Virus record (IMG/VR): IMGVR_UViG_3300049216_000090
Direction: 5' to 3' (one strand)
DNA: 64,000 nt
Source: an uncultured virus (IMG/VR IMGVR_UViG_3300049216_000090)
Lineage: Duplodnaviria; Heunggongvirae; Uroviricota; Caudoviricetes
Shown here: one piece after another, positions 40,639 through 63,541 of the stretch
Layout of the letters: each line of letters begins with the position of its first letter
How positions within the stretch are numbered: the stretch's first letter is position 1
Position numbers and translations under genes: made by a program
The notes under the pieces: generated by a model
What the model was told of the DNA's origin: nothing
Seen by the model: the letters and a program-made list of their open reading frames with translations, nothing else
Databases searched by the model: none

Positions 40639-40643
40639 CCATG

Positions 40644-46090: not shown

Positions 46091-46378
46091 ATGCAAATCG
46101 CAACCCAGAAGCGGCTGGCAATCGAAAGTCTGGTGGTAGACGGGGAGAAGGACGGCACGATGCAGGGCTACACGCCGGGCGAGCGTGGGTTCAAGCCCCC
46201 GTTCGCCATCTTCTCGCCCGACCTCCAGCACAACGTCGGCGGGCCGTATGCGTCGGCCAAAGACGCCCTGAAAGCCATCACCCTGATGCGGGGCGGGGCG
46301 ATGGTTCCGTACACCGACGACGCCACGGTGGTGTGGACGGTGAACGGCAGGCCGAGCGAGTGGTACGAAAAAGATTGA
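46091..46378 (+). CDS. hypothetical protein
   Basis: After motif A and GGAG. Confidence 0.75.
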   Translation: MQIATQKRLAIESLVVDGEKDGTMQGYTPGERGFKPPFAIFSPDLQHNVGGPYASAKDALKAITLMRGGAMVPYTDDATVVWTVNGRPSEWYEKD

Positions 46379-46444
46379 AGACCGTGAACTAGACCGGGTT
46401 GGCCCGGTCTACCATGCGAGACGGAAACCATAAGGAACCAAATC

Positions 46445-46702
46445 ATGCCGGAAACAGTGAAGGCCGTGTTTCGTCGGGACCGGGGCGGCATCGTGTTCGC
46501 CATGTTCCCTTACGACATTGCGACCCACGAAGGCCACTGCACCTGTTACGAACACGTCGGCCAGCACAGCGCCGCCGACTACACCGCCTGCATCGCCACG
46601 AGCCGCCCGGCCAAGCCCGACGAGTACGCCCCGCTGTTGCGGGAACTCGAAACCCGTGGCTACAACGTCCAGGTCATCAAACGCCGCAATAGGGGGAACT
46701 GA
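46445..46702 (+). CDS. phage hypothetical protein (CYEHVGQHS motif)
   Basis: After motif A and TAAGGA. Confidence 0.8.
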   Translation: MPETVKAVFRRDRGGIVFAMFPYDIATHEGHCTCYEHVGQHSAADYTACIATSRPAKPDEYAPLLRELETRGYNVQVIKRRNRGN

Positions 46703-46704
46703 GC

Positions 46705-46881
46705 ATGTTCAGCGGAAACCTTCACGACATCGGTGTGGCGGTGAGCGAAGCGAAGACGAACATCCGGGCGGCGCTCGCCATCCTGCACCACCTGAAGCAC
46801 GGGACGGAGCAACTGACCCCGGCCCAGGTGAAGGAGATGGTGGAAGAGGCCGAACACCACCTGAAGAAAATCGGCGACTGA
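46705..46881 (+). CDS. small hypothetical protein (58 aa)
   Basis: MFSGNLHDIGVAVSEAKTNIR...; stop abuts the next motif A. Confidence 0.65.
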   Translation: MFSGNLHDIGVAVSEAKTNIRAALAILHHLKHGTEQLTPAQVKEMVEEAEHHLKKIGD

Positions 46882-46943
46882 GTGTGAACTAGACCGGGTT
46901 GGCCCGGTCTACCATGCGAGACGGAAACCATAAGGAACAAAGA

Positions 46944-47243
46944 ATGAAGCAGCCGACGACTCTCGCCCCGTTCGCCTGTCCGAAATGCGGCAACACGACG
47001 GCCCAGAAGGGCATCAGTCACGCCTGGATCGAGTGGCGGGTGGCGGGCGTGTTGGGTTCGCACGACGGAAAGCCGGTGGTGAACTTCCAGGACAACGAGG
47101 GCGAGAGCATCGGGCCGGGCGAGCGGTTCACCCGTGAGAACGTCCCCAACGACGTGCCCGACCTGTCGCACTTCCACTGCAACGCCTGTAGCTGGAACTG
47201 GTTCCTGGCCGACACGGTGGATTCCTTCGATCTTCGGAAATGA
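46944..47243 (+). CDS. zinc-ribbon protein
   Basis: CPKC...CNAC; after motif A. Confidence 0.75.
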   Translation: MKQPTTLAPFACPKCGNTTAQKGISHAWIEWRVAGVLGSHDGKPVVNFQDNEGESIGPGERFTRENVPNDVPDLSHFHCNACSWNWFLADTVDSFDLRK

Positions 47244-47283
47244 CCGTGAACTAGACCGGGTTGGCCCGGTCTACCATGCGAGA

Positions 47284-47580
47284 AAAGGGAACGGGCAAGC
47301 CGGGTGGATGAGCCGAAGAGCCTGCCACCGATTGTACGAGAGACGTAAGCAATGCACTGGCCGTAGACCGGGGCGGCGGGAGGCCGCATGAGTTATCGGG
47401 GCAGACCGGGCGAAGTTGTCCCACTATCCATGAAACGCCAGACCCCAACGGTAGGAAAGCACCGTGAAATATCCCACCGGATTTACCTAGCTCGCTGCGG
47501 CGAGAGGCCGCATGATCGCCCGGCGTGAAGCCGGGAACTTTACCGGGGCGGGAAGTTCTCCCGCCCTACTTGCGAACACT
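47284..47580 (+). ncRNA. candidate structured RNA / long leader
   Basis: About 300 nt without a credible ORF after motif A; duplicated GCGGC-GRGAG-GCCGC-ATGA hairpin and further stems. Confidence 0.5.
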
Positions 47581-47595
47581 TCACAAGGGCACGAC

Positions 47596-47901
47596 ATGAA
47601 GACGAAGAAGCCGTTCCAGAGCAAGAGCCGGATGCGCAAGGCGTTGGAACTGTTGAACGCCGCCGACGACCAGTTGCACGCCATCCGTGACCACTTCGAC
47701 ATGGAGTGGGGCGAGAACTCCCACAGCGAACTCGACACCAACCTGCTCCACGCCATCGGGAAGATCATCGACGCCAAGCGTGCCGTGGAAGACACCCTGG
47801 CGAAGTACAAGGGCAAGAGCGTCACCCCGCACTTCCCCACGAAGCGGAAGGCGAAGCCCGCCGTGACCGTGGGCCAGTTGCAGAAAGCGCTGGTTTGTTG
47901 A
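47596..47901 (+). CDS. hypothetical protein
   Basis: AAGGG RBS. Confidence 0.7.
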   Translation: MKTKKPFQSKSRMRKALELLNAADDQLHAIRDHFDMEWGENSHSELDTNLLHAIGKIIDAKRAVEDTLAKYKGKSVTPHFPTKRKAKPAVTVGQLQKALVC

Positions 47902-47975
47902 AAGTGACCGTGAACTAGACCGGGTTGGCCCGGTCTACCATGCGAGACGGAAACCGCAACCATAAGGAACCGAAC

Positions 47976-48212
47976 ATGCAGTACGTCACTCTGGTCCCCG
48001 CCTACGGTCGTGATTACAAGTCGGCGAAGGACGTGAAGGCGGCGTGGGCCGAGGGCAAGGACTTCCAGATCAACGACATGAGCCACCCGAACGACGGGAG
48101 CTATGTCAACATCAACGACGACACCACCGGACTCACCTTCAACATCCGGTACAAGAACCTCACCGGCGTGGCGGTCATCAAGGGCGGAAAGCCGAAGACG
48201 GCCACGAAGTAA
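47976..48212 (+). CDS. phage hypothetical protein (PAYGRDYKS motif)
   Basis: After motif A and TAAGGA. Confidence 0.8.
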   Translation: MQYVTLVPAYGRDYKSAKDVKAAWAEGKDFQINDMSHPNDGSYVNINDDTTGLTFNIRYKNLTGVAVIKGGKPKTATK

Positions 48213-48222
48213 CCGGGAAGTC

Positions 48223-48344
48223 GAAGATATAGCTCCGGGGGGGGCGTCCGACCGGGCGACCCACCGCCGACCGGCTCACAGGTGTACGAACGGCAGACAC
48301 CGTTCAATGCCCGGAGCTATATCTTCATGCGAGCTATATCTTCA
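48223..48344. repeat. 17-bp inverted repeat element with an extra GAGCTATATCTTCA copy
   Basis: GAAGATATAGCTCCGGG (48223) and CCCGGAGCTATATCTTC (48310). Confidence 0.75.
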
Positions 48345-48364
48345 AGCACACATAAGGGCAACAC

Positions 48365-48790
48365 ATGGCCGACGAACTCACACCGGGTTTCTACTACCTC
48401 ACCAAACTGGTCACGAACCCCAAGCCCGACCGCCGCAGCAAGCGGTACGATTCGGCGGTCGCCTGGGCGGAAGGCGAGCGGGTTTTTGTGAAGCCGCCCC
48501 GTGACGGGATGGTGGGGCAAGTCGAGTGGCGGGACGGCAGCGTCAGCTACTACGGGCGGGTGGACGCCGATCCCATCTACGGGGCGGCGAACGAGGTCGT
48601 GAAGAACCTTCGCCCGGCAGAGCCGACGGTGGGCCAGTTTGTGAAGAAGGCCAACAGCACGGCGGCGCAACTGCTGGCCTACTTCATCGGCACGAACGAA
48701 ATCAGCTTCAACGACCTGAAGCGGGCCGACGCCGACATGAGCCGGGACGAGTTCGACCTGAACGCCTTCGAGAAGAAACACGAAATCTAA
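48365..48790 (+). CDS. hypothetical protein
   Basis: TAAGGG RBS. Confidence 0.75.
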   Translation: MADELTPGFYYLTKLVTNPKPDRRSKRYDSAVAWAEGERVFVKPPRDGMVGQVEWRDGSVSYYGRVDADPIYGAANEVVKNLRPAEPTVGQFVKKANSTAAQLLAYFIGTNEISFNDLKRADADMSRDEFDLNAFEKKHEI

Positions 48791-48853
48791 CCGTGAACTA
48801 GACCGGGTTGGCCCGGTCTACCATGCGAGACGGAAACCATAAGGAAAAGAATC

Positions 48854-49183
48854 ATGACCATCGACGGCATCGTGAACGGGGTAGACGGGCTGAACACCCA
48901 GGCTGCGGCCCTGGTGGGGGCGATCAAGACGATTCAGGCTGCGGCCCGTGAGTTGGCCCAGGCCGAGCGGGTGCGGGCTTCCGACAACCGGAACCGCAAC
49001 CAGTACATCATCTGGCAGAAGCACCGGCACAGCCAGATCAGCGACTACAGCGAGGTCGCCGGGTTGTTCTACGGCACTTACGAGGAGGCCGATGCCATCC
49101 TGGAGAAGCTGGGGAGCGACTTCTACCGGACGGAACCGACGGTGATGACGGCGGCGAACGTCCACGAGTGGACCGATCAGTGA
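48854..49183 (+). CDS. hypothetical protein
   Basis: After motif A. Confidence 0.75.
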   Translation: MTIDGIVNGVDGLNTQAAALVGAIKTIQAAARELAQAERVRASDNRNRNQYIIWQKHRHSQISDYSEVAGLFYGTYEEADAILEKLGSDFYRTEPTVMTAANVHEWTDQ

Positions 49184-49284
49184 GTGTGAACTAGACCGGG
49201 TTCGCCCGGTCTACCTTGCGAGTAGGGTTCAGAGTCGGGCGGGGGCTTTCGCTCCCGCCCGTGGTCCACATACTGGAGCAGCCG

Positions 49285-49590
49285 ATGTTTCCGCAGCCGA
49301 CCGACCGCCGTGGTGTTCATGGTGCAGCCCGCCCCGCCTTCACGGTACACCGCTTCAAGCGGACGATCACGATCAACGTGAACGAGGAGATGGCGGAAGA
49401 GTTGGGCCGTGTCCTGGACGCCAACGAGAGCCGCCAGGACCGGGTTCCGCCCTTCATGCACGAGTTCTTGACCCAGGTGTACGAGGCGCTGGACCAGCGG
49501 CCCCCGGCCCAAGGCGAGAAGCCCGCCACGCTCGCCCCCGGTCGCCCCCGCCCCGAAGGTCGTGCCCGTCCGGTTGTGAAGGCCGTGTAG
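49285..49590 (+). CDS. hypothetical protein
   Basis: GGAG RBS; after motif A and a hairpin. Confidence 0.65.
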   Translation: MFPQPTDRRGVHGAARPAFTVHRFKRTITINVNEEMAEELGRVLDANESRQDRVPPFMHEFLTQVYEALDQRPPAQGEKPATLAPGRPRPEGRARPVVKAV

Positions 49591-49656
49591 TGAACCGTGA
49601 ACTGGGCGCTGGTGGCCCGGTCTATGCGTGAAGAGTTCACTATATGGAAACGAGTC

Positions 49657-49827
49657 ATGAAAACAACCACCAAGTTCATTATCCTGAAGGTCGAAGTCCT
49701 GCACGAAGACAAGGCCGATGTCGTCGAAGTTTGTGAAGAGATCGTTGTTGTGAACAACGAACACGAGCAGGGCGAAATCGCAAAATCCCAAGTCGTCGGG
49801 GTGCTGGACAAGATGCCGACGTGGTAG
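49657..49827 (+). CDS. small hypothetical protein
   Basis: After degenerate motif A. Confidence 0.6.
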   Translation: MKTTTKFIILKVEVLHEDKADVVEVCEEIVVVNNEHEQGEIAKSQVVGVLDKMPTW

Positions 49828-49946
49828 GGGGAAGCCCTACGGCTGAGGGAGAGTAGACTTTAGACGATTGTACCTACGTTAGTTGGCTACGAGGATGACA
49901 GGTCTGACCGAGGCCGGATGCTGAGGCAGGCCATCCTATTTCTCCC

Positions 49947-49989
49947 ACGACCCCAGCCGGGGCTGAAGACGGCTGGGGTCGTTTCGTTT
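49947..49989 (+). terminator. intrinsic terminator
   Basis: ACGACCCCAGCCG...CGGCTGGGGTCGT-TTCGTTT. Confidence 0.75.
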
Positions 49990-50082
49990 GAACACCTTTC
50001 GGGTACAAATTTTGAAAGTTTCCTTTAGGCATTTGTACCCTACGGGGTGCGACGAGGAAACAAAAAGAAAAGGAAGTGCGAC

Positions 50083-50283
50083 ATGAAGCTGACTGGCACG
50101 CAAATGCTGGGGATCGTGGCCGAGGCTTGCGAGAAGGTGACGAACAACCTCCGCAGCACCGACGAGAACGCCCACACGCTCCGGTGCGTGACGACGGAAA
50201 CGACCTACTTCACCTTCACGAGTACGGTCGTGGTGGACGGGGTGACGGTCGAAGTCCAGGTGAGCCGCCCGGTTCCGAAGTAA
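50083..50283 (+). CDS. hypothetical protein
   Basis: AAGGA RBS after motif B. Confidence 0.7.
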   Translation: MKLTGTQMLGIVAEACEKVTNNLRSTDENAHTLRCVTTETTYFTFTSTVVVDGVTVEVQVSRPVPK

Positions 50284-50376
50284 AAACTTTCTGGAAGACC
50301 GTGAACTAGACCGGGTTGGCCTGGTCTACCTTGCGAGAAGAGTTGAAACCATCATCACCACAGTAGGGAAAACGAG

Positions 50377-50643
50377 ATGAAGACCTCCACGAAGAACGCC
50401 GCCATCGCCGCCGTCCGCATGGGTCGCCCGCCGGTGTACACGGGGCTGACGCTGAAGAACATCCTCCGGGTGGTCGCCCTGCACGGCCTGATGCGGGGCC
50501 AGCGGTTGCTCGCCACGGTCGGCATCCAGCGGAAGGCGGGGCAGCCGAAGGAGAAGGTGAACATCAGCCTGCCGACGCTGGCGAAGTTCGCCGCCGCCGC
50601 CAAGATCAAGCTGAAGCGGGGTCGCCCGGCCATCGAAAGCTAA
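50377..50643 (+). CDS. basic protein with two AT-hook-like GRP motifs
   Basis: RMGRPP and KRGRP; K/R/A-rich. Confidence 0.65.
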   Translation: MKTSTKNAAIAAVRMGRPPVYTGLTLKNILRVVALHGLMRGQRLLATVGIQRKAGQPKEKVNISLPTLAKFAAAAKIKLKRGRPAIES

Positions 50644-50725
50644 AACTTTCTACTAGACCGTGAACTAGCCGCCCGGTTCACGGTCTACCTTGCGAGAACG
50701 AATCACCCCAATAAGGAATGCGAAC

Positions 50726-51241
50726 ATGAAGGCCACCGGAAACGACATCGCCAAGCTGATCGAAGACCGCATGGAATCGGTGACGGTTCCCAACATCATC
50801 GCCGAGTACCTGGGCACGAAGGCCGGGAAGATGCTCACGGTGCGGCACGAGAAGGAACTGAAGGACATCACCGGCGACAGCGAGTTGCGCATCCGCAAGC
50901 AGTACGGCATGACGAACATCGTGTGGGGCGGGTACGACCGCACGGGGGGCAACGGGGGCGGTTCGCTGCTGCTGGCCCACACGGAAACCAGCGTCATCAT
51001 CCCGACCGCCGAAGTGGTCCGGGAGAAGAACCCGGCGTACTTCTCGGCGGCTCTGGCCCGCAACGAGAAGCGGGTGAAGGCTCTGGCCGACCGTGCCACG
51101 CTGGATGAGGTCGCCACGCTCGCCGACACCATCCTGAAGGCACAAGCCCGGTTGAAAGAACTGTTCGCCTACGGCACGCCGTTGGACCCCGACCACTACG
51201 GTATCGAGGAACTTGTCGGTTTGTCGGAAAAGCGCCGGTAA
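50726..51241 (+). CDS. hypothetical protein
   Basis: After motif A variant and TAAGGA. Confidence 0.75.
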   Translation: MKATGNDIAKLIEDRMESVTVPNIIAEYLGTKAGKMLTVRHEKELKDITGDSELRIRKQYGMTNIVWGGYDRTGGNGGGSLLLAHTETSVIIPTAEVVREKNPAYFSAALARNEKRVKALADRATLDEVATLADTILKAQARLKELFAYGTPLDPDHYGIEELVGLSEKRR

Positions 51242-51307
51242 GTCGTGAACTAGACCGGGTTCGCCCGGTCTACCTTGCGAGACGAGAACCCCATACGGAG
51301 AACGAGA

Positions 51308-51775
51308 ATGCACAAGTGCGTTTCCCCCGGCTGTGTCCTCCCCGGCGTCATCAAGCTGGAGGTCGAAGGCCCGCCGGACTGGACGAAGGAACACAAGTGG
51401 TGTTGCGTGGAACACGTCACCACGGAAGAGAAGCGGGCGGAAGAACTCCAGGGCTGGAGCAAGTGGGTCGAAGTCGTCCCGGTCGTGGGGATGGGGGCGA
51501 CGGCGGGGTATGGGAGCGACAGCTACCCGTATACCATCATCGCCGTGAGCGCCAACGGGAAGACCATCACCGTACAGGCCGACGACCACCACCCCGCCCC
51601 CGGCTGTGACCACTTCACGAACCAAGTGTACACCTACACGCCGAACCCGAACGGCTCCACGAAGGTCTACACGCTCCGCAGTAACGGGCGCTGGGTGTTG
51701 AAGGGCGACACCATGAAGGGCGGGCAGGCCATCGGCATCGGGGCACGACGCTACTACCAAGACCCAAGTTTCTGA
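51308..51775 (+). CDS. phage hypothetical protein (VGMGAT...SDSYPYTI...YQDPSF motif)
   Basis: After motif A and GGAG. Confidence 0.75.
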   Translation: MHKCVSPGCVLPGVIKLEVEGPPDWTKEHKWCCVEHVTTEEKRAEELQGWSKWVEVVPVVGMGATAGYGSDSYPYTIIAVSANGKTITVQADDHHPAPGCDHFTNQVYTYTPNPNGSTKVYTLRSNGRWVLKGDTMKGGQAIGIGARRYYQDPSF

Positions 51776-51781
51776 CCGACG

Positions 51782-51813
51782 AACCCAGCCCCGCCCGGCT
51801 GGGTTTTCTTTTT
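51782..51813 (+). terminator. intrinsic terminator
   Basis: AACCCAGCC...GGCTGGGTT-TTCTTTTT. Confidence 0.8.
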
Positions 51814-51993
51814 GGGATACCGACAGGGTACAAATGTTGAAGGTTCGATTTTAGGCGTTTGTACCCTACGGGGGGCAAGGGCCGAGACGAACCGGACGAC
51901 GAAAAGAAAAAAGAAACGAAGTGTGAACTAGGACGGTTCGGCCCGGTCTACCTTGCGAGTCGGAAACCACCACAACCTGTAGGGATCGAAACG

Positions 51994-52242
51994 ATGAACG
52001 TCCTCACCGCCGCCAAGACCGCCATGCTGACCCTGAACGACACGCTCTCCACCATCGCCCGCAAGAACGGCCAGACGGTGAAGGCCGTGACCGTGGACGT
52101 GGAGAAGACCAACCTGGACGCCGGGAAGATCGTCGGCACGGTGACGGTCAACAACCGCAGCCGCCGCCCCTTCACCGTGAACGTGACCGGCTCCGGGGTC
52201 GTGGTCAAGTTCTACGGGGAAGAGGCGAAAATCGCCGCCTAA
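51994..52242 (+). CDS. hypothetical protein
   Basis: After motifs B and A. Confidence 0.7.
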   Translation: MNVLTAAKTAMLTLNDTLSTIARKNGQTVKAVTVDVEKTNLDAGKIVGTVTVNNRSRRPFTVNVTGSGVVVKFYGEEAKIAA

Positions 52243-52327
52243 GTCGGCCTAGACCGTGAACTAGACGGCTAGTTCACGGTCTACCTTGCGAGAACGACAT
52301 ACGGAAACCCCTTCAAGGAACTACGGA

Positions 52328-52588
52328 ATGAAGAAGAAGAACCCGACGCTCGCCAAGACGGTTTCGTGGCTCGTGGTGTCCGGCATCCTCATCACCTGCA
52401 CCGGCTGGTTCGAGTCCGGTAGCTTCATGGTGGGGTTCATGACTGCGGTGTGGGCCAGCATCATCAAAACCCCCATCTACAGCCTGCACGAAGCGCTGTG
52501 GGGGCGGGTGATCTTCAAGGAGAAGCCCGCCCCGACGCCCGACATCAAGCTGTTCGGGACGGTCGAACAACTCGAAAAAGTGTCGTGA
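52328..52588 (+). CDS. DUF2061-like membrane protein
   Basis: TLAKTVSW...KTPIYSLHEALW. Confidence 0.65.
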   Translation: MKKKNPTLAKTVSWLVVSGILITCTGWFESGSFMVGFMTAVWASIIKTPIYSLHEALWGRVIFKEKPAPTPDIKLFGTVEQLEKVS

Positions 52589-52653
52589 AGAGTGTGAACT
52601 AGACCGGGTTCGCCCGGTCTACCTTGCGAGAACGAAACCCACGGGGAAACGCA

Positions 52654-52899
52654 ATGCGAGTCGAACGAATCGTCTTCCTGCAAGGTGAGGAAGCCCGCCC
52701 GGTGTTGGAACTGCTGGACGAACAGGGGCAGGGGGCGGCGGTCGAACACCTGCAACAGTGGTTCAACCCCGGCGAGCATGAGGTTTCCCACTGCCTAGCA
52801 GCGGGAACGCACGACCGGACGTTCCACGACGGCAAGGGGTTCACGCTCACCTGGAACGACGGGTTGGAGTACATCGGGCTGGAATTCGCCCACAAGTAG
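52654..52899 (+). CDS. hypothetical protein
   Basis: After motif A. Confidence 0.75.
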   Translation: MRVERIVFLQGEEARPVLELLDEQGQGAAVEHLQQWFNPGEHEVSHCLAAGTHDRTFHDGKGFTLTWNDGLEYIGLEFAHK

Positions 52900-53054
52900 A
52901 ACACTTGGAGCGTGGCACGGGCTGGGGAGTGGGTAGGACGTTCAGAATGTTCAGGGTTCCTACCCCTGAACGAATTGAATGCCGCTCTCCAGCACCGGCC
53001 CATTGCGAATTAGACAGTTGTACCCTACGGGTCATAACCCTACAGGAGTCTGCG

Positions 53055-53225
53055 ATGCAAGTCGGAACCAACATCAAACTGTTCACCGCCCGCATGTTCG
53101 GGGTCGTGGTCACGGCCCACGTCCTCAAGGTCAGCAAGGACGGGCAGCGGGCGAAGGTGCGTTGCTCCGGGGGCGGGGCGACGTGGGAAGAGAAAATCCA
53201 CATCAACCAACTGGTGACGGAATGA
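53055..53225 (+). CDS. small hypothetical protein
   Basis: AGGAG RBS after motif B half site. Confidence 0.65.
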   Translation: MQVGTNIKLFTARMFGVVVTAHVLKVSKDGQRAKVRCSGGGATWEEKIHINQLVTE

Positions 53226-53488
53226 AACGAGAATACCGCCGCACCAACAAGCGGCTTCGGAACTTGCGAAACATGACCTTCCAGTTCCGGGAGGTCAACC
53301 AAGCGGGCGACGTGTTCCGTGACCACTACCGACACGACAAGGCGCAAATAACGCTCGTGCGGCACACCCACCAGTACGACAACGGCGACGTGTTCGTGAA
53401 CTGGCATTGTGTCGAGTTGGGCGGGGGGAACGCCGGTATCGGCTACTGGTTGAAATTGGCCGAACGCCGCATGAGGCCGGTGAAGTAA
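53222..53488 (+). CDS. hypothetical protein
   Basis: ATGA coupling. Confidence 0.65.
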   Translation: MKREYRRTNKRLRNLRNMTFQFREVNQAGDVFRDHYRHDKAQITLVRHTHQYDNGDVFVNWHCVELGGGNAGIGYWLKLAERRMRPVK

Positions 53489-53490
53489 TC

Positions 53491-53519
53491 AGCCGGGGCT
53501 ATAGCCCCGGTTTTTTCTT
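53491..53519 (+). terminator. terminator (palindrome CCGGGGCTATAGCCCCGG)
   Basis: Same palindrome recurs at 57088; T tract follows. Confidence 0.75.
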
Positions 53520-53573
53520 GGGCTATAGCTTTAAGCAATTGTACCCTAGTGGTCAACAAGGGAGGATCGAACG

Positions 53574-53756
53574 ATGGAAAAGACTGCGAACGAACTGGCT
53601 ACGCTGCTCCGGGAACTCGCCGACGCCTGCGAAGCCGCAGCGAAGGGCGACAAGGCGGCCCGCAAGCTGCTCGCCGACCACACCGACAGCCGGTGGTTCG
53701 GGCTGGTGGTCGGGGCGGGCAAGGTGCAGGAACTCCAGGGCGACGAAGAAAACTGA
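53574..53756 (+). CDS. small hypothetical protein
   Basis: GGAGG RBS after motif B half site. Confidence 0.7.
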   Translation: MEKTANELATLLRELADACEAAAKGDKAARKLLADHTDSRWFGLVVGAGKVQELQGDEEN

Positions 53757-53826
53757 AAGTAACCGTGAACTAGACCGGGCGAACCCGGTCTACCTTCCGA
53801 CAACAACACCCCAACGGGATGCGAAC

Positions 53827-54000
53827 ATGAAGCAGATGAAGACGGTGACGATGAAGACGGAAAAGCCCATGCGGGGCAAGGCCAAGAAGGTCGGCAAGGG
53901 TCACTCGTTCGGCTCGGCGGGGGCGGGGCGCAACACCCTGTTCATCTCCCGCAAGAGTCGGGGCAACGACAAGGTGCGAATCCAACAGGGGGAATTCTAA
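53827..54000 (+). CDS. small basic protein
   Basis: After motif A; K/R/G-rich. Confidence 0.65.
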   Translation: MKQMKTVTMKTEKPMRGKAKKVGKGHSFGSAGAGRNTLFISRKSRGNDKVRIQQGEF

Positions 54001-54491
54001 TGGACCGTGCGTTACTCGAAACACTCTTCGGGGTGTTCGGCATCAAGCGCCCCGTGGTCGGGGTGGACCTGCCCACCGGGGCTATCGTCGTCGGGCCGTT
54101 CACCCTCTCCCGCAACGAAGTGACGGTGAAGGGGTTACGGGGCGACCGGCAAGCGTCGAGCTATACCCTTGACGTGGATACCGGCGGGGGTGACGTTCTC
54201 GACCTGTTCACGGATACCGACTTCCGCAAGGTGGCGGTGCGGATGGTCGGGGAATACGCTCAGTGGCGGGCTACTGTCACGCTGGATATGCTCGCCGATA
54301 CTGCTCAGGCGGAAGCGTGGCAGAAGGATCAAGAGGAGTTGAAGGCGGCACGGGCGGAAGGGAAAGCCTACTGGCTGGCGACAGCGCCAGGGGCACGCAC
54401 GAAGGACGCCAACCCCTACCCCTACGGCATCGCCCACTATCAACAGTGGGGGGCGGGGTACGACGAAGCGGACGCCGAAGCGGTGTTCTGA
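54000..54491 (+). CDS. hypothetical protein
   Basis: TAATG coupling. Confidence 0.7.
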   Translation: MDRALLETLFGVFGIKRPVVGVDLPTGAIVVGPFTLSRNEVTVKGLRGDRQASSYTLDVDTGGGDVLDLFTDTDFRKVAVRMVGEYAQWRATVTLDMLADTAQAEAWQKDQEELKAARAEGKAYWLATAPGARTKDANPYPYGIAHYQQWGAGYDEADAEAVF

Positions 54492-54573
54492 GAAATCTTG
54501 TGAAGGTCGTGAACTAGACCGGGTTCGCCCGGTCTACCTTGCGAGACGGAAACCCAACCTGAAAGGTGATGCG

Positions 54574-55188
54574 ATGAACACGACAACCGCCCCCGGCATC
54601 TTCGGCAGCATCGACACCCGCACCCGTGTCCGCAACGGACGCAACCGGGAGAACCAGATTGCGAAGGCTCTGAAGGAGCAACACGGTCTGCCGCTGGTCG
54701 AACCGACGGAGGCCGAAGACAAGTACCGCAAGATCGACCGCTGGCTCGTCCAGGGCGACAGCCGGACGGCGGTGCAAATCAAGTACCGGGAGAGCGGCGA
54801 CGATTTGCTGGTCGAAGTGTGGGACAAGTGGTTCGGCTGGGGTCACGAGTTCAACAAGCTGGGGCGGGATGTGCAGGGCGACAGCAAGCTGTACGCCGTG
54901 CTTCGCCTGGACCGCACCACGGTGGTGCTGACCAGTGCTGACGTGCTGAAGGCGATTGTGCAGGAGATGGTTGACCACTGCATCGCCGGGGGCTGGACGC
55001 ACGACAACGGCCCGGACTCGAAAACCTTCCACTTCGCCAAAGCGGGCGGGCGGTGTGTCCTGAAGGTTCAGCGTGACCCGCACGACGGGCGGGCGAAGAT
55101 GGTGGCCTACATCCCGGCGAACGTCGTCATCGCCGAGCATCAGGCGAAGACGTACCGGGTGAACCTGCCTGCCAACTGGCAGGAGTGA
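54574..55188 (+). CDS. PD-(D/E)XK superfamily nuclease-like protein
   Basis: E(NQIA)...EDKYRKIDRW...VQIKYR...LVE pattern. Confidence 0.55.
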   Translation: MNTTTAPGIFGSIDTRTRVRNGRNRENQIAKALKEQHGLPLVEPTEAEDKYRKIDRWLVQGDSRTAVQIKYRESGDDLLVEVWDKWFGWGHEFNKLGRDVQGDSKLYAVLRLDRTTVVLTSADVLKAIVQEMVDHCIAGGWTHDNGPDSKTFHFAKAGGRCVLKVQRDPHDGRAKMVAYIPANVVIAEHQAKTYRVNLPANWQE

Positions 55189-55200
55189 GCCGGGCTAGTA

Positions 55201-55243
55201 CGGGGAACATCCGCAGGAGTTAGCTACTCCTGCGGACTCCCCG
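55201..55243 (+). terminator. long hairpin (probable terminator)
   Basis: CGGGGA..TCCGCAGGAGT-TAGCT-ACTCCTGCGGA.TCCCCG. Confidence 0.6.
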
Positions 55244-55306
55244 GAACGCAGGCTTTAGGCGATTGTACCCTAGTGAGTGCCCAACCAACACCATACGGAG
55301 AACGAC

Positions 55307-55906
55307 ATGCGGAACATCATCCTGAGCATCGAACACGACCACGACGCCGAGATGCCGGACAGCGCTTGCGACGGCTGGAAACTGGTGTCCTTCAGCCGCC
55401 GTCACATCAACAGCGGCGACCCGTTCGACTACTTCACCGAAAACCGCAAGGTGTCCGGCAAGTACACCAGCAAGGCACGGGCGGGGCTGTTCTACGTCCT
55501 CAGCTACTACGAACACGGCGGGTGTGAGTGGAGCATGAAGGGCGAAGGGGTGCAATGCCAGTGGGATAGCGTGGGCGTGGCGGGTGTGCTGGTGTGGACC
55601 GGGAAGCCCACCGACTTGCCGAAGGACAAGCGCAACGAGTCGGCCCGCTCCTTCCTGAAGGAATACAACGAGTGGGCGAACGGTAACTGCTACTACTACA
55701 GCCTCACGACGGACGAAGGCGAAGACGTGGGCGGGTGTGGGGGCATCATCGGCAGCGACTACCTTGCCGAAATCATCGGCGAAGACTTGGAACCCGGCGA
55801 CCGTGTGAAGATCGAAGGGGAGATGCACTTTCTGGGGGACTACCTGAAGTTCCCGGCGGGTGTCGAGAAGGTGGACGACTTCGACGACGAAGAAGAGGCC
55901 GCTTGA
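55307..55906 (+). CDS. acidic phage hypothetical protein
   Basis: GGAG RBS after motif B half site. Confidence 0.75.
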   Translation: MRNIILSIEHDHDAEMPDSACDGWKLVSFSRRHINSGDPFDYFTENRKVSGKYTSKARAGLFYVLSYYEHGGCEWSMKGEGVQCQWDSVGVAGVLVWTGKPTDLPKDKRNESARSFLKEYNEWANGNCYYYSLTTDEGEDVGGCGGIIGSDYLAEIIGEDLEPGDRVKIEGEMHFLGDYLKFPAGVEKVDDFDDEEEAA

Positions 55907-55912
55907 ACGACG

Positions 55913-55943
55913 AAGACCCAGGCTGGCCCGGCCTGGGTTTTTC
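55913..55943 (+). terminator. intrinsic terminator
   Basis: ACCCAGGC...GCCTGGGT-TTTTC. Confidence 0.8.
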
Positions 55944-56000
55944 TGTTGGACCACCGTAAGGTACAAATGTTGAAGGTTCGCTTCAGACAATTGTACCCCA

Positions 56001-56315
56001 CTGGACGTTGAGAAGTTACCAACACCCCTGACGGGGTGAACGCCGAGAGTCAAGAGGGAAGCATCGAAAGTGCCCCGCAAGGGGCCGACCCGATCTAAGC
56101 GTTGTGGTTCACTGTACTGGCTAACTCCCCTGAGCGTGTCACCTGGACATTGCGAAGGGAACTGACTGCGGGATGTAGCTAACCCCGCACGTTGCCGAGT
56201 ACGACGCAAACGACGAGTAAGGGCAATGCTGAAGCCTTGAACGGGCGATGTGAGTCACCTGCGGAAGCTAGGTGCGACAAAGGACCGGGGGGACGCCCCT
56301 GGTCCTTTGCTTTTT
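56001..56315 (+). ncRNA. candidate structured non-coding RNA (about 310 nt)
   Basis: Bounded by motif B (55960-56000) and a terminator (56278-56315); several stable hairpins; no RBS/ATG ORF. Confidence 0.6.
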
Positions 56316-56368
56316 GCCCGACACTTCAAACAATTGTACCCTACGGGACTCACCCCGGAGGCATTGCG

Positions 56369-56590
56369 ATGTTCTGGTCCACCATGACGACTTACCCGAC
56401 CGCCGAGTTCGCCCAACTGGTGGCGGGCGCTGCCAACCACGGGCAGGAGAACCCACGGGCGAAGGCCGAGGGCACGGCGGTTCTCGTCTCCCACAAGCGG
56501 AAGACGATGCCGAACTACGAAGCGGAATACTGGCTCGCCCAACTGAAGGGCGTGGAGCGGGCCATCCTGTTCATGCAAAAGAAAAACTAA
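56369..56590 (+). CDS. hypothetical protein
   Basis: GGAGG RBS after motif B half site. Confidence 0.7.
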   Translation: MFWSTMTTYPTAEFAQLVAGAANHGQENPRAKAEGTAVLVSHKRKTMPNYEAEYWLAQLKGVERAILFMQKKN

Positions 56591-56664
56591 GTCACCGTGA
56601 ACTAGACCGGGTTCGCCCGGTCTACCTTGTGAAGTCGCCCGACACCACCATAAGGAATGCGAAC

Positions 56665-57078
56665 ATGGCGAAGTCCAAGACCGTCACCACCCCCCGCAAG
56701 CTGGTCAGCACCATCATCGACGCCACCCCCGGCGTCGTCCGTGCGGTCCACGTCTTCACCCCGGCGTTGCAACACCGGCTCGCCACGGCGGGCAGCGAAC
56801 TGCCGGTGATGGCGCTGCGGAGCAGCCTGCACGAGTACAACCTGTTCAAGCTGTACCAGCGCATCGAACTGCTGGGGCCGTCCAGCATGGACCCGCTTTT
56901 CGACAAGCCCCTGAGCGGCACGGGCGGGCGGGGCGTGGCGATTCTCTTCACGGAGTTCGCCCTACGGGTGTGGCACTTCGACGACGAAACGCCCGCCGTC
57001 ATCGACAGCAAGGACGGGCGGAACCCGCAGGACGTGCTAAAGGACGTTCTCGCCGCCTACGTCCGCAACAAGTTCTGA
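56665..57078 (+). CDS. hypothetical protein
   Basis: After motif A and TAAGGA. Confidence 0.75.
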   Translation: MAKSKTVTTPRKLVSTIIDATPGVVRAVHVFTPALQHRLATAGSELPVMALRSSLHEYNLFKLYQRIELLGPSSMDPLFDKPLSGTGGRGVAILFTEFALRVWHFDDETPAVIDSKDGRNPQDVLKDVLAAYVRNKF

Positions 57079-57087
57079 CGGTAAGGG

Positions 57088-57114
57088 GCCGGGGCTATAG
57101 CCCCGGCTTCTCTT
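57088..57114 (+). terminator. terminator (palindrome GCCGGGGCTATAGCCCCGGC)
   Basis: 20-bp perfect palindrome plus TTCTCTT. Confidence 0.7.
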
Positions 57115-57190
57115 GGGGATATAGCTGCGGTACAAATGTTGAAAATATAGCTTCAGGCAATTGTACCCTACGGGGCAGGAGGACCGAAAC

Positions 57191-57418
57191 ATGAAAGTGC
57201 GAGTCGGATCGAAGTACGTTTTCAACCGTGCGGGCTGGGACATCGCCGACCCGAAGGTGAAAATCGACAACGGAACCGTGGTCAAGGTCGGCAACATGCG
57301 GGGCTGCCCGCCTGCGAACACGATGGGCCACTGCTACGTTTTCACCCTGTCGGGTGAGTTCCTGGGCATGGTGTCAACCGCCAGCCTGAGCAAGCCGGAA
57401 AAGAAAAAGAAAAAGTAA
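57191..57418 (+). CDS. hypothetical protein (GCPPANTMGHCYV motif)
   Basis: AGGAGG RBS after motif B. Confidence 0.75.
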   Translation: MKVRVGSKYVFNRAGWDIADPKVKIDNGTVVKVGNMRGCPPANTMGHCYVFTLSGEFLGMVSTASLSKPEKKKKK

Positions 57419-57488
57419 GTGAACCGTGAACTAGACCGGGTTCGCCCGGTCTACCTTGCGAGACGGAAACCCCCAACGGAGAACGAAA

Positions 57489-57869
57489 ATGCTGACCTTC
57501 TCGAAGTGCGAAGAACTGACCCGCCGCCGTGACCGCAAGAAGCTCGGAAACAACACCTACGTCGAACGGATCGACGCCGACACGTTCGGGGTGATGTACC
57601 ACAGCACCTACGTCGTGCGGGTTCACCGGAACGGGACGTGGACGCTGAAAACGGGCGGGTGGCAGACGGTCACGACGAAAGAGCGGATGAACGACAACAG
57701 CCCCGCCCGCATCTTCCAGCGCAAACACGTCTGGTATCTGGCGGAAGGCGTCGTGTTCACCGACGGCGTGACCATCGGGGCGAACGGGCTGCCGGTGGAC
57801 AGCGTGCCCGCCACGCCCGCCCCGGTTCGCCACACGGCCCCGGCTGCTGACCTGTTCGCCGTGGTGTGA
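57489..57869 (+). CDS. phage hypothetical protein (GGWQTVTTKERMN motif)
   Basis: After motif A and GGAG. Confidence 0.75.
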   Translation: MLTFSKCEELTRRRDRKKLGNNTYVERIDADTFGVMYHSTYVVRVHRNGTWTLKTGGWQTVTTKERMNDNSPARIFQRKHVWYLAEGVVFTDGVTIGANGLPVDSVPATPAPVRHTAPAADLFAVV

Positions 57870-57871
57870 AG

Positions 57872-57902
57872 GAAGGGGGCACGCCCAGCCCCCTTTTCTT
57901 TT
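57872..57902 (+). terminator. intrinsic terminator
   Basis: AAGGGGGC...GCCCCCTT-TTCTTTT. Confidence 0.8.
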
Positions 57903-57970
57903 CGCCCGATGCTTTAGGCGATTGTACCCTGATGGTTGTCGGAAACCTAACCTTCTGCGGAGTGCGAATC

Positions 57971-58339
57971 ATGGGCGTGCGACTCTACCCGATCACCCGG
58001 AACGTGGCGAACCTGGAAAAGCTGTGCGGTGTGCCCGAAGGCACTCACGCCCGCCTGGAAGCCCTGAAGGTCAAGCACGGGACGGAAACCCCCGGCCTCA
58101 CCTTCTGGGAGCGTGAGGGGCGATACGAAGCCCTCTGGAACGAAGTCAACGCCGACCCCCACACGGCCACCCTGGACCACTTCATTACCTTCGGGTGGGG
58201 CAAGTTCGGCGACATGCACGACATCACGGGCGGGACGTGCGGCGGGTCGGAAACCGACCCCGTGCGGGCGACGATGCTGCTCCGCAGCAACGGCCTTCAC
58301 CCCGACCTAGCCCTTTGTGAAGGGGTTTGCTGGGGTTGA
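57971..58339 (+). CDS. hypothetical protein
   Basis: GGAG RBS after motif B half site. Confidence 0.75.
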   Translation: MGVRLYPITRNVANLEKLCGVPEGTHARLEALKVKHGTETPGLTFWEREGRYEALWNEVNADPHTATLDHFITFGWGKFGDMHDITGGTCGGSETDPVRATMLLRSNGLHPDLALCEGVCWG

Positions 58340-58344
58340 CCGGG

Positions 58345-58370
58345 AGCGGGCTTCGGCCCGCTTTTCTTTT
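58345..58370 (+). terminator. intrinsic terminator
   Basis: AGCGGGC-TTCG-GCCCGCT-TTTCTTTT. Confidence 0.85.
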
Positions 58371-58433
58371 CGGCTTTTTCTTTAGGCAATTGTACCCTAC
58401 GGGTTGTGAAGATCACCCCTGCGGAGAACGAAG

Positions 58434-59620: not shown

Positions 59621-60064
59621 TTAAGCGACTTTCAAAAATACGCCTGCCAAAAATTTCACGTCCCCCTCCAGGGGTTGCGACTGCTTCAAGTACCGCTCGA
59701 TCCGGGACTCCTCCGACGGGACGTACTCCTTCACTTGGGAAATCCCCATGTCGTAATCGCACGGGCCGTAGGGGAGTTCGATGTCGGGAATGTCCTGGCC
59801 TTCCGGCTGGACCATCTCGTGCATGAACGCCAACGCAGGCGGCAGGCCGAACACTTCCTGGGCTTGGTCGGCGTACCAGGGAATCTTCTTCCCCACTTCA
59901 AAGTTGCCGCCGACGAAATGTTTCAACTCGTCCTTGCTGCCGTTGATGGCGTCCCGCTTCGGCCCGTAGTGGTGGTTCTCCCGCAGCTTGTCGATGTGGC
60001 GGTTCGGCAGGAGGGCCATCTGTTCGGGCTGGTTCAGCCAATCCTCATACTCTTCCCAAGTCAT
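59621..60064 (-). CDS. FMHE-motif paralog 4
   Basis: EEYEDWLNQPEQ, LPPALAFMHEMV, RIERYLKQS; AAGGA RBS and ATGA coupling. Confidence 0.7.
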   Translation of the reverse strand: MTWEEYEDWLNQPEQMALLPNRHIDKLRENHHYGPKRDAINGSKDELKHFVGGNFEVGKKIPWYADQAQEVFGLPPALAFMHEMVQPEGQDIPDIELPYGPCDYDMGISQVKEYVPSEESRIERYLKQSQPLEGDVKFLAGVFLKVA

Positions 60065-60339
60065 TCTTCCTTCCTTTCGGGGGCGAAGAAGTAGTCCCCG
60101 TTCGGGTGATACTTCTTCTTGACCCACAAGTCGTTCCGCTGGGCGAACAGGTCGTCTTCTACAACTCGTTCGTCGGCCCCGAACACCGCCTCGTGCATGA
60201 ACATCATCTCCGGGGGCAGTTCGCACACGTCCGAGTTGTAGGGAAAGGGTCGGCCCAGGACGGGCACGCCCTCCAGGTAGCGTTGCAGTCTCTTCTCGGT
60301 GGACGGCAGGTAGTCTTCAAACTCTTCAATAGGAAGCAT
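60061..60339 (-). CDS. FMHE-motif paralog 3
   Basis: RLQRYLEG, VCELPPEMMFMHEAVFG. Confidence 0.7.
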   Translation of the reverse strand: MLPIEEFEDYLPSTEKRLQRYLEGVPVLGRPFPYNSDVCELPPEMMFMHEAVFGADERVVEDDLFAQRNDLWVKKKYHPNGDYFFAPERKEE

Positions 60340-60793
60340 ACTCGATCCTTTCAGATTCGTCGAGATACTGTTGCGCACGCTTCGTGTGGCTGCCCCGGCT
60401 GCTGATCGTCCGGTCGGCCTCGATCTCGTCCCAGATGTTGCTCCGGTCTTCCGGGAAATTCAAACTAATGTCATCAACTTTGTCGTCTTCGCCGAACACG
60501 GCGTCGTGCATGAACATCATTTCCGGGGGGAGGTCGCAAACTTCGGGGTGGTAGTTGAGTGGGGCGGCGGCACGTTTGGGTTGTTCGTTGGGAACGCCCG
60601 GCCCGGTCTGTACGTTATCCGACGGGTTGTAGGTGCATTGCTCCCAGAGTTTCTTTTGTTCGGGTTCGTTGAGCCACTTAGCGTAGTCCTCGTCGGAGAT
60701 GATGCCGAGCCAGTGCCCGAACTGAGCGATCAGCTTCTTGGGGATGGAGGCGGTGACGACGGAGTTGTAAGTACCTTTGCTACAGAATGCCAT
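60326..60793 (-). CDS. FMHE-motif paralog 2
   Basis: EDYAKWLNEPEQ, VCDLPPEMMFMHDAVFG, RAQQYLDES. Confidence 0.7.
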   Translation of the reverse strand: MAFCSKGTYNSVVTASIPKKLIAQFGHWLGIISDEDYAKWLNEPEQKKLWEQCTYNPSDNVQTGPGVPNEQPKRAAAPLNYHPEVCDLPPEMMFMHDAVFGEDDKVDDISLNFPEDRSNIWDEIEADRTISSRGSHTKRAQQYLDESERIEYASY

Positions 60794-61966: not shown

Positions 61967-62585
61967 CGTCTACTCCCGAAAGCATTACGCCAATCTCTTT
62001 GGCCGAAAGCATTGTAACAATGGTTGCGATTTCGTTCAAGTTGAGTGGCTGGCCGTCGAGGGAGTCGCCGAACGCACGGTGGGCGGCACAGGCGGCGTAC
62101 AGGGTGGGGTTGTCGAGGGCGACGGCAGCGACGGCGGCGTGTCCGGCGGCGACCTGGGCGACGAGCATCAGTTCCAGGAGGATGTCGGACATCTTGGCGG
62201 CGGCTTCCTTGGAGCGGTCCTTGCCCTTCAGCCAGTTGAACCCCCACTGTTGGAAGAGGGCGTGTTCGACGGTGTTGAGTGCGCAGACGATCCCGAAGGT
62301 GATCCGCTGTTCGATGGTGAGCGTGGGGGTTTCGACCTCCCGGAGAGTTTTCATTCCCGTGGAAATCTCTCGGTAGTCGTAGTTGGTGATGTCCCCGAAC
62401 GGTTCGGCCACCCACAGGCGGTGGTTCTTGTACTCGTCGTTGGCGGCGACCATCAGGGCGGCGACGGTGGGGCTTTGGTAACAGGTGAAGTAGTAGTTGT
62501 CGTTCGTCTCGGTGTGCGAAACGTCTTCGCCCCACTGACGGCCCTGCCAATCCTTACCTTCTCTGTCGGTTATGAAGTAGTACAT
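61803..62585 (-). CDS. hypothetical protein (C-terminus overlaps next gene)
   Basis: ATG 5 nt after a minus-strand TATAAT (62591-62596). Confidence 0.65.
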   Translation of the reverse strand: MYYFITDREGKDWQGRQWGEDVSHTETNDNYYFTCYQSPTVAALMVAANDEYKNHRLWVAEPFGDITNYDYREISTGMKTLREVETPTLTIEQRITFGIVCALNTVEHALFQQWGFNWLKGKDRSKEAAAKMSDILLELMLVAQVAAGHAAVAAVALDNPTLYAACAAHRAFGDSLDGQPLNLNEIATIVTMLSAKEIGVMLSGVDDGPEDRTDQRGETPAPTLQVGGEAGEVHHDHDRTATAGHARICEGNETTVATQS

Positions 62586-62662
62586 ACCACATTATAGCGA
62601 TATTGGGTGATATATCTAAAGCGGTTTTTTCGCTAACCCACCGACGGCCACTATATACAGGC

Positions 62663-63541
62663 ATGAGGAAAGAATGGATTCTTATCCTGGTTCTTGCATT
62701 GGCCCTTGTCTTTGCGTACCAAAAGAAGGCGTCGAAGGGAGTCGTACCAGTTACGCCTTCCGACAACTCGTTCGTCTTGCCGCCAGTCCCGCAACCGGAT
62801 AACCGACAACCTCAACCCGTGCCGCCCCCTCAGAGGCCACAGGTTGTTGTAGACATCATCAATTGGCCTGCGGTACGACAGGTCAGCCCGACCGACATTG
62901 GTGAAGTGTTGGCCGACATCGACAGCCACATGCCTGCGGGCCACCACTACAGGTTCCCGGAGAAGATCACCTGGGCGCACGAGACGACCCACGGCATCAA
63001 CGCCAACATCCGCAACAAATACTACACGCAGAGTCGTGTCGTAAACGCCTTCTACGTTCTTCAGAACCGTGGCATCGTGGTCGAAGAGCCGAAGACGACT
63101 ATCGCTGCCGTCGCCGGGAACATCCCGCAAAGCTGGCGGGGGACGTGTTACCAGCTTTACTTGGTGCAGCAGCGGCGGGACTGGAACGACAGGCCGTTGT
63201 ACCTGTGCGACGAGTGGGTTGCCTACACGAACGGTGCGGCTTGTCGGAAAGACTTGAAGATGGAGGATCAGGCGAGCGAGATGGAGTTCACCTGCGAGTT
63301 CACCGGGTATGTGTTGAGTCTGGCCTACACGGTGAAGCAGAAGTGTCCGGCGTATGACGACAAGCAATTCAAGGCGTTCGTCATGTGGAACATCGAGCGG
63401 ACTATGAAGATTTACAACAACGAGGCGGGGGCTAATACCCGGCTCCAGGCGATTCGTACATCCCCGGACGGCGAACCCATCAGGCAGTTCGCCCGGTCCT
63501 ACTTCGGTGCGGAGTGGTGCATGGAGATATTGGGTTTTTAA
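62663..63541 (+). CDS. secreted or membrane-anchored HEXXH metallopeptidase-like protein
   Basis: N-terminal hydrophobic helix, P/Q linker, WAHETTHG and downstream DEW. Confidence 0.65.
   Translation: MRKEWILILVLALALVFAYQKKASKGVVPVTPSDNSFVLPPVPQPDNRQPQPVPPPQRPQVVVDIINWPAVRQVSPTDIGEVLADIDSHMPAGHHYRFPEKITWAHETTHGINANIRNKYYTQSRVVNAFYVLQNRGIVVEEPKTTIAAVAGNIPQSWRGTCYQLYLVQQRRDWNDRPLYLCDEWVAYTNGAACRKDLKMEDQASEMEFTCEFTGYVLSLAYTVKQKCPAYDDKQFKAFVMWNIERTMKIYNNEAGANTRLQAIRTSPDGEPIRQFARSYFGAEWCMEILGF

Follow-up and report, generated by a model that had tools for sequence, protein, structure and literature searches.

Positions 56004-56315 of the + strand very probably make up a gene of their own whose product is a structured non-coding RNA of ~310 nt, one module among the multi-promoter cassettes of a huge phage that is uncultivated. 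All positions refer to the window, the whole 64,000-nucleotide stretch of viral DNA that we analysed. Relatives of the unit occur in four IMG/VR records (G001, 533 kb; G002, 340 kb; G003, 42 kb; G004, 46 kb), and the comparison of the five sequences suggests a new, clade-specific family of structured RNAs, where 'new' is relative to Rfam 15 only. A sequence-only reading had proposed a stand-alone RNA of a possibly new class at this place from a repeated motif, a terminator, several hairpins and a gap free of open reading frames (ORFs), and all of these features were found where it had put them. The parts of the unit and its borders are as follows.

55959-55970, - strand: arm of an imperfect inverted repeat (on the - strand it reads ACATTTGTACCT), lying upstream of the promoter-like motif and facing it
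55981-56002, + strand: promoter-like motif of the RNA unit, CTTCAGACAATTGTACCCCACT, a variant of the window consensus that ends in CCCCACT
56004-56315, + strand: predicted transcript of ~310 nt, its 5' end placed from the motif and its 3' end from the U-run of the terminator
56004-56007, + strand: 5' strand of helix P1, GACG, pairing with 56275-56278; 4 pairs, 2 compensatory, 95% of cells paired
56023-56038, + strand: P2 hairpin CACCCC-UGAC-GGGGUG, with C-G to U-A and A-U to C-G changes between the window and G001
56041-56044 with 56244-56247, + strand: P3, CGCC with GGCG, a long-range helix
56050-56054 with 56236-56240, + strand: P4, UCAAG with CUUGA, U-A in the window and G001 versus C-G in G002-G004
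56060-56064 with 56226-56230, + strand: P5, AGCAU with AUGCU, C-G, G-C or U-G at one pair and C-G versus U-A at another
56072-56085, + strand: P6 branch hairpin GCCCC-GCAA-GGGGC with a GNRA loop; 5 pairs, 3 compensatory, 100% paired
56089-56091 with 56221-56223, + strand: P7, CCC with GGG, an invariant helix that encloses a purine-rich conserved internal loop and the distal domain
56092-56220, + strand: distal domain, an outer stem with inner hairpins, variable between lineages and holding the GCGGG...CCCGC hairpin
56256-56274, + strand: P8, the 3' hairpin CACCUGC-GGAA-GCUAGGUG, with a U-A to C-G change
56275-56278, + strand: 3' strand of P1, CGAC, closing the RNA body just before the terminator
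56278-56315, + strand: intrinsic terminator, a 14-bp stem (56278-56309) with a 4-nt loop, then CUUUUU
56330-56341, + strand: core of the promoter-like motif of the next cassette, which precedes gene 56369-56590 and marks the end of the RNA unit

The promoter-like block is ~22 nt long with the window consensus TTTAGGCrATTGTACCCTACGG, and its core, ACAATTGTACCC, lies at 55987-55998 in the RNA unit. With up to two mismatches allowed, the core is matched 20 times in the window against 2.98 expected, a count that none of 100 shuffles reached. The + strand copies run from 40.8 to 58.4 kb, 20-35 nt 5' of start codons and after terminators; across the 18-kb region 40763-58397 the block stands 5' of nearly every small gene, always on the + strand. 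An equivalent motif lies 5' of the RNA in all four relatives. Counts of TGTACCCTA in G001, G002, G003 and G004 are 15, 51, 37 and 57 in the forward and 1, 1, 2 and 0 in the reverse direction (controls 0-3), the copies being spaced 0.2-1 kb apart in one orientation. As the motif is abundant and one-directional in all four records, the RNA is part of a clade with this promoter-like signal in common. A promoter role is predicted for the motif. ORFs with a sigma-70 region-2 domain over the Pfam cut-off are present in G001 (two, at 90692-90868 and 413540-413710) and in G002 (three, at 48055-48270, 62531-62704 and 156410-156523), and are candidate factors for reading the TGTACCC motif. Taken with the hairpin-plus-U terminators after each cassette, these ORFs suggest that the polymerase reading the motif would be of bacterial type and would use a sigma factor of the phage. 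A search for T7-like RNA polymerase (PF00940) had no match in G001-G004, but its control likewise matched nowhere, so the search is uninformative. The inverted arm upstream of the RNA unit is one of seven arm and motif pairs in the window (40763-40803, 42395-42437, 43544-43586, 50001-50040, 51826-51869, 55959-55998 and 57128-57168), laid out as GGGTACAAATG, ~19 nt, CAATTGTACCC; these could be divergent promoters, operators for a dimeric regulator or RNA stems.

At the other end of the unit, the terminator called strong by the sequence-only reading has 14 pairs at 56278-56309 followed by CTTTTT. It comes top for the 50-64 kb region, with the most pairs among the 14 sites listed, and a terminator stands at the matching place in all four relatives, with differing stem sequences.

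The relatives were reached by two routes. A relaxed promoter pattern led to G001, with four motif copies within 3 kb of that record; its homologue of the RNA lies at 230973-231234 (blastn), where the 5' block has an E value of 2e-29 and the 3' block is 91.5% identical over 47 nt. G002-G004 were found through an alignment of a neighbouring 204-aa protein family, and in each of them nhmmer matches both conserved blocks, co-linear and 0.4-1 kb downstream of the 204-aa gene. A five-sequence nhmmer profile matches the window at 56003-56315 (E 4.5e-66). R2, a covariance model of the 5' domain, gives E values of 1e-21 to 1e-23 in G001-G004 with one strong copy per record, and over 32 IMG/VR records (L156 left out) it found nothing convincing outside these four (best E 0.07). 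A scan of IMG/VR with the two invariant blocks returned 10 hits, namely G001-G004 and six unrelated coding sequences. An 18-mer match in L149 was discarded as a chance hit, the alignment ending at the 18-mer. The window itself holds no paralogue of the RNA. CheckV rates the 533-kb record as 100% complete and the 340-kb record as 69% complete, which points to genomes of about half a megabase. A further relative, from sequencing run X5, is ~91% identical over 54562-56316. The DNA of the window itself is present over its full length in two runs from moss metagenomes, which are marked as possible sources.

Wider searches added no further homologue. The exact promoter pattern GCRATTGTACCCTACGGG gave no match in the viral contig collection and TTAGGCRWTTGTACCCTACGG none in metagenome contigs and none in genome contigs; these patterns are too strict, as the promoters of G001 fit neither of them. 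A locus search with the protein encoded at 55277-55906 alone gave no close relative. Around the family of this protein 116 loci were collected (80 metagenome, 36 viral), and the RNA was found in none of these, either by blastn and nhmmer with the window sequence or by the five-sequence profile, which was run over 166 loci (1.17 Mb). Another 24 proteins belong to the 204-aa family, with identities of 43-76% and mostly from Logan and ENA contigs, and genome contigs searched with this family gave no relative. The breadth of the RNA family is a lower bound, the scan with RNA-derived patterns having covered IMG/VR.

Helices P1-P8 come from RNAalifold on the five-sequence alignment, A6. P3, P4, P5 and P7 join the conserved 5' block (56041-56091) to the conserved 3' block (56221-56247) over ~200 nt, and the 5' strands of P3, P4 and P5 are set apart by the conserved purine-rich loops GAGAG and AGGGA. 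Across the alignments, sequence conservation is concentrated in the internal loops GAGAG, AGrGGA, GAAAG, GGAAUAAG and ACGAAGAA and in GNRA-type loops. Loops of the latter type cap P6 (GCAA in the window and G001, GAAA in G004), P8 (GGAA in the window) and an extra GCC-GAAA-GGC hairpin that is inserted just 5' of P8 in G001, which hints at tertiary folding; in G002 and G003 the P6 hairpin is longer. The distal domain is far more variable, with 19-47 of 100-116 columns identical between lineages, and folded alone it gives z scores of -4.0 in G002, -4.2 in G004, -1.6 in the window and +0.22 in G001. All four hairpins that the sequence-only reading had named are present in the sequence. The first, second and fourth of them (P2, P6 and P8) are kept in the relatives with compensatory changes; the third lies in the lineage-specific variable domain.

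Comparison of the homologues bears out the structural part of that reading. Each of the checks proposed there that we ran supported it. The alignment has five rows in three well-separated lineages, G003 being nearly identical to G002, and G004 ~84% identical to G002 and G003. In the core of eight helices and 36 pairs, 95.5% of 179 cells are paired, with two window cells of P2 counted as unpaired because its 3' side is misaligned by one column between the clades. Ten of the 36 core pairs change on both sides (16 cells), a figure that reflects few independent events, as there are five sequences and most of the double changes split the window and G001 from G002-G004. The covariation score, for a fold derived from the same alignment on which it is tested, is 0.306 compared with 0.168 +/- 0.028 in shuffles, and none of 500 shuffles reaches it. 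Sliding the 3' partners by 1-3 columns leaves 25.5-40.8% of cells paired, with 0-3 double-change pairs. Within the core, G-U cells outnumber A-C cells by 8 to 3. This excess favours the + strand as the one that would be folded, in agreement with the orientation of the promoter-like motif and the terminator.

Thermodynamic stability alone is unremarkable and is weak evidence for structure. The folding energy of 56001-56315 with the terminator has a z score of -3.05; without the terminator the z score is -1.27, 21 of 200 shuffles folding at least as well, and on the - strand it is -0.86. The sequence comparison also points to selection on the unit at the nucleotide level. G001 at 224-236 kb is syntenic with the window at 50-60 kb, the genes being 67-78% identical in DNA; the neighbouring proteins are just 47-70% identical to those of G001, yet blastn of the 20-kb loci of G002 and G004 against the window picks up only five segments, one of which is the RNA.

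The sequence-only reading had set the unit apart from tRNA, tmRNA, RNase P, SRP and 6S RNA, and the searches agree. None of the 4227 models of Rfam 15 matches anywhere in the window at its family gathering cut-off, and ARAGORN found no tRNA or tmRNA gene there. At E <= 10 the stretch 55850-56450 has four weak matches. Two of them lie upstream of the unit, and those that touch it are a 15-nt match to CRISPR-DR57 inside and a match to SOX2OT_exon3 across the 3' end; the homologue loci L160, L162 and L166 repeat none of these matches, and likewise gave nothing meaningful at E <= 10. As regards the generic marks of a structured non-coding RNA, the unit recurs in five genomes with compensatory changes and no conserved ORF, on a basis of few sequences and few independent events. 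The suggestion of a new class holds against Rfam 15 only; the family may have a prior, unnamed entry in one of the large phage RNA catalogues. PMC10690425 presents a large collection of structured RNA candidates drawn from IMG/VR, and the sample numbers of the four homologue records had no match in its six searchable supplementary files, the other three lying outside this search.

Two kinds of RNA with a dedicated protein partner were considered and set aside. For a non-coding RNA of the retron or DRT type, the adjacent reverse transcriptase gene was not found: RVT_1 (PF00078) has no match in G001-G004, the control being positive in 3 of 14 genomes, and no reverse transcriptase domain is present among the 31 selected window ORFs that were scanned. 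For a Y RNA, the partner of Ro60/Rsr, no TROVE (Ro60) domain exceeds the cut-off in G001-G004, the sole match being one in G002 whose 18.4 bits fall short of the cut-off of 23, and no Y RNA or YrlA model matches in 55850-56450 or in the three homologue loci.

An RNA product is consistent with metatranscriptome data, the check by RNA sequencing that the sequence-only reading had named. Libraries X8 and X9, which give identical results and are possibly one data set filed twice, contain a 212-nt contig that corresponds to 56033-56244 with no differences; strand, ends and abundance cannot be read from the contig, and DNA may have been carried over into the libraries. Over a 4.5-kb stretch the only other cover in X8 and X9 is a 43-nt partial piece with a loose end (54506-54548), the uncovered parts being uninformative on abundance.

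What might such an RNA do? We tentatively propose that it acts in trans, either as the protein-binding scaffold of a ribonucleoprotein made by the phage or as a decoy by which a host factor is sequestered in infection. The architecture is observed, and transcription is predicted to run from the unit's own copy of the promoter-like motif up to the intrinsic terminator. The fold is well supported: P1 pairs the RNA ends, P3, P4, P5 and P7 form a long-range core from which P6 branches, and the variable distal domain sits at the tip. On our proposal the RNA would work as a stable compact fold whose conserved internal loops bind protein. Paired ends next to a terminator hairpin, a long-range core of helices with purine-rich conserved loops, branches with GNRA loops and a variable periphery fit a compact trans-acting RNA that would either be recognised by a protein or act through its fold. 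A bolder version, which we regard as doubtful, is that the RNA is the founder of a new class of compact RNAs in phages of ~0.5 Mb, serving as the core of a ribonucleoprotein or as a decoy of a central host machine. Such a decoy might capture a defence protein, for instance, or RNA polymerase as 6S RNA does, and the module would have been kept as one of very few amid freely shuffled cassettes because the phage needs the RNA for cell takeover.

Several known RNAs offer points of comparison. GOLLD (RF02032) and ROOL (RF03087) are likewise stand-alone, ORF-free, multi-helix RNAs borne by phages or prophages, recognised by covariation and of unclear function at discovery. They are roughly 600-800 nt in size, whereas the present RNA is shorter (~310 nt), matches neither model at E <= 10 and, unlike them, is confined as far as searched to one huge-phage clade. 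6S RNA, a decoy of RNA polymerase, shares with it paired ends and an extended, interrupted helix in which a large conserved internal loop precedes the terminal domain. The analogy is a loose, architectural one. A 6S-like decoy would be a plausible route for a phage to redirect transcription. No 6S family is among the matches at E <= 10 in 55850-56450 or in the three homologue loci, and the present RNA differs in having the extra branches P2, P6 and P8. The pRNA of phi29 (RF00044) is likewise a structured RNA that a phage encodes as a separate unit under a promoter of its own, and it works in a protein machine; it is ~170 nt long and belongs to small phi29-like phages, its model has no match here and nothing ties the present RNA to packaging. 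Non-coding transcripts from very large phage genomes are a further parallel: two reports describe non-coding RNAs seen by RNA-seq in jumbo phages, four in PA5oct (PMC7318152) and others in 201phi2-1 (PMC11512511). The present RNA is not one of these cultured jumbo phage RNAs, as GenBank phages hold no similar DNA: blastn with the unit gave no match, an 8-kb query around it gave one ~90-nt coding match far from the unit, and nothing similar to the neighbouring 204-aa protein was found among them. Nearly everything known about huge phages comes from metagenomes, and most of what their rapidly evolving multi-promoter regions produce is uncharacterised. Here an RNA module is conserved in its nucleotides while the neighbouring proteins drifted to ~50% identity, and it survives the shuffling of cassettes. 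At ~300 nt it is a compact target that could reveal how huge phages use RNA in infection, and it adds a family supported by covariation to the short list of phage non-coding RNAs.

It is also conceivable, if rather unlikely, that the RNA regulates by base pairing, with a single-stranded stretch or the distal domain pairing to host or phage mRNAs and altering their translation or stability. Many bacterial and phage small RNAs are stand-alone units with a Rho-independent terminator as this one is, and a variable domain in a conserved scaffold could carry lineage-specific targeting. However, at ~310 nt, with long-range helices and GNRA branches, the RNA is larger and more elaborate than typical seed-type small RNAs, and the bases conserved most strongly sit in loops internal to helices rather than in open ones. 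A search for complementarity elsewhere in the window gave nothing significant, the best stretches being 16-22 nt with E values of at least 0.6. These features fit a seed-type antisense RNA less well than a compact trans-acting RNA.

We consider it quite unlikely that the fold itself is the function, as in a ribozyme or an orphan aptamer. GNRA-type loops, conserved internal loops and a multi-branch core closed by paired ends are shared with ribozymes and with large ornate RNAs, but no ribozyme or riboswitch model of Rfam 15 matches even at E <= 10. A switch would call for a conserved downstream gene, of which there is none, and a site of cleavage or ligation cannot be inferred.

The genes around the unit bear on whether it could be a cis-acting leader, an attenuator or riboswitch that governs read-through into the gene downstream. 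The terminator at its end, with the 3' strand of P1 abutting the terminator stem, is reminiscent of an expression platform. Against this, a new promoter-like motif follows the terminator in the window and in G001, G002, G003 and G004, and the downstream gene is one in the window, another in G001 and another in G002-G004. The relative from run X5 keeps the RNA unit up to the end of the terminator (56316) and then jumps to 56694, omitting the next cassette. A leader function is largely refuted by the lack of conservation of the downstream genes, and we hold it to be very unlikely. More broadly, no conserved adjacent partner gene was found in the flanks of the five loci, and the genes immediately flanking the unit differ among the window, G001 and G002-G004. 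Of the 15 window ORFs within 3.5 kb on either side, four are matched by BLASTP in the flanks of any other locus, and a Kyano_Gp96-like family is the sole one matched in all four; its gene stands 3' of the RNA in the window and 5' of it in the other four loci. The 204-aa family has BLASTP matches in G001, G002 and G004, the copy in G003 being known from the family alignment. With flanks that vary and an X5 relative that lacks the next cassette, the unit is an autonomous module and not the leader of a particular gene. The 'stand-alone' part of the sequence-only reading is upheld, a promoter-like motif and a terminator of its own accompanying the RNA in all five genomes while the immediate neighbours vary by lineage.

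The 204-aa protein (54574-55188, + strand), which is encoded near the RNA in all five genomes, has no Pfam or PHROG match. Its AlphaFold2 model has a mean pLDDT of 91.6, and Foldseek against the PDB gives weak matches to nucleases of the PD-(D/E)xK type (I-Ssp6803I, E 8.6e-3; Hjc resolvases, E ~0.08-0.2). Pfam and PHROG searches on the 31 selected ORFs of the window assigned phage-like helicase, clamp-loader-like and ArdA-like proteins and left many without assignment. The ArdA-like antirestriction match, at 42653-43198 on the + strand, stays under the Pfam cut-off (23.8 bits, cut-off 27; PHROG 25535, E 5.6e-19), and a SNF2-family helicase is encoded at 7532-9973 on the + strand.

Joints in the X5 relative at 56316, 57079, 58341, 58382 and 55250 are cassette borders, with cassettes missing or reordered, and the cassette order in G001 also differs from that in the window. 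Both orders fit a shuffling of cassettes by recombination at repeated regulatory sequences. A similar setting was reportedly described by Arbiol et al. in 2010 for the hyperplastic regions of T4-type phages, whose promoter/stem-loop ('PeSL') cassettes are said to be shuffled by recombination at repeated regulatory sequences. In both cases small units have a promoter and a terminator hairpin of their own; the signs of shuffling here are the breakpoints of X5 at the borders of cassettes and the changed order of G001. The likeness is one of setting; here one cassette carries an RNA in place of a small ORF, and the promoter motif bears no relation to that of the T4-type cassettes.

Such shuffling, with its breakpoints at the borders of a unit flanked by repeated motifs, is what would favour an element that acts as DNA, such as a replication origin or a packaging or recombination site of the cassette region. 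We judge this highly improbable, as compensatory changes keep pairs ~200 nt apart (P3-P5), the excess of G-U over A-C cells described above is found on the + strand, in five genomes the promoter-like motif and the terminator exactly bound the part that is conserved, and the unit is represented by a contig in an RNA library.

The reading of the unit as a gene for a small protein, or as a decayed gene, has practically no chance of being correct and is refuted as far as sequence goes: a 31-codon GTG ORF at 56070-56165 does have a purine-rich stretch 5' of it, but it is not conserved, a 1-nt indel falls within a conserved block and the codon-phase GC bias is absent. The longest start-to-stop ORF on the + strand inside the unit is this one of 31 codons, and the longest in the relatives are of 22 codons in G001 and 8, 8 and 8 in G002-G004, with 1-nt indels within the conserved blocks. 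GC by codon phase is flat in the unit (0.61/0.59/0.54), whereas eight neighbouring genes have a GC3 of 0.78-0.92 and a GC2 of 0.39-0.49; among 273-nt windows taken from 40 to 59 kb, the phase spread of 0.08 ranks in the bottom 4%. The remark that the unit, unlike its neighbours, has no ORF with a ribosome-binding site and ATG start is thus in keeping with the ORF lengths and the flat codon-phase GC.

A 329-codon ORF on the - strand (55220-56209) was rejected as a gene, since it is antisense to gene 55277-55906 and its phase pattern is that of a shadow frame. In all five homologues the purine-rich unit has few stops on its - strand, which we read as an effect of composition and not as a sign of a gene. 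A piece of 40-59 nt that occurs three times near the end of the window (59817-59857, 60191-60249 and 60504-60554) is 91.5% identical to G001 235792-235850. It was rejected as a small RNA element, as the copies lie inside - strand ORFs and look like a protein motif of paralogous genes. Codon-phase GC bias is also absent at 40000-40900 and 47170-47450, the first of which coincides with a switch of GC skew and gene direction; these two stretches may be regulatory DNA or further non-coding RNAs.
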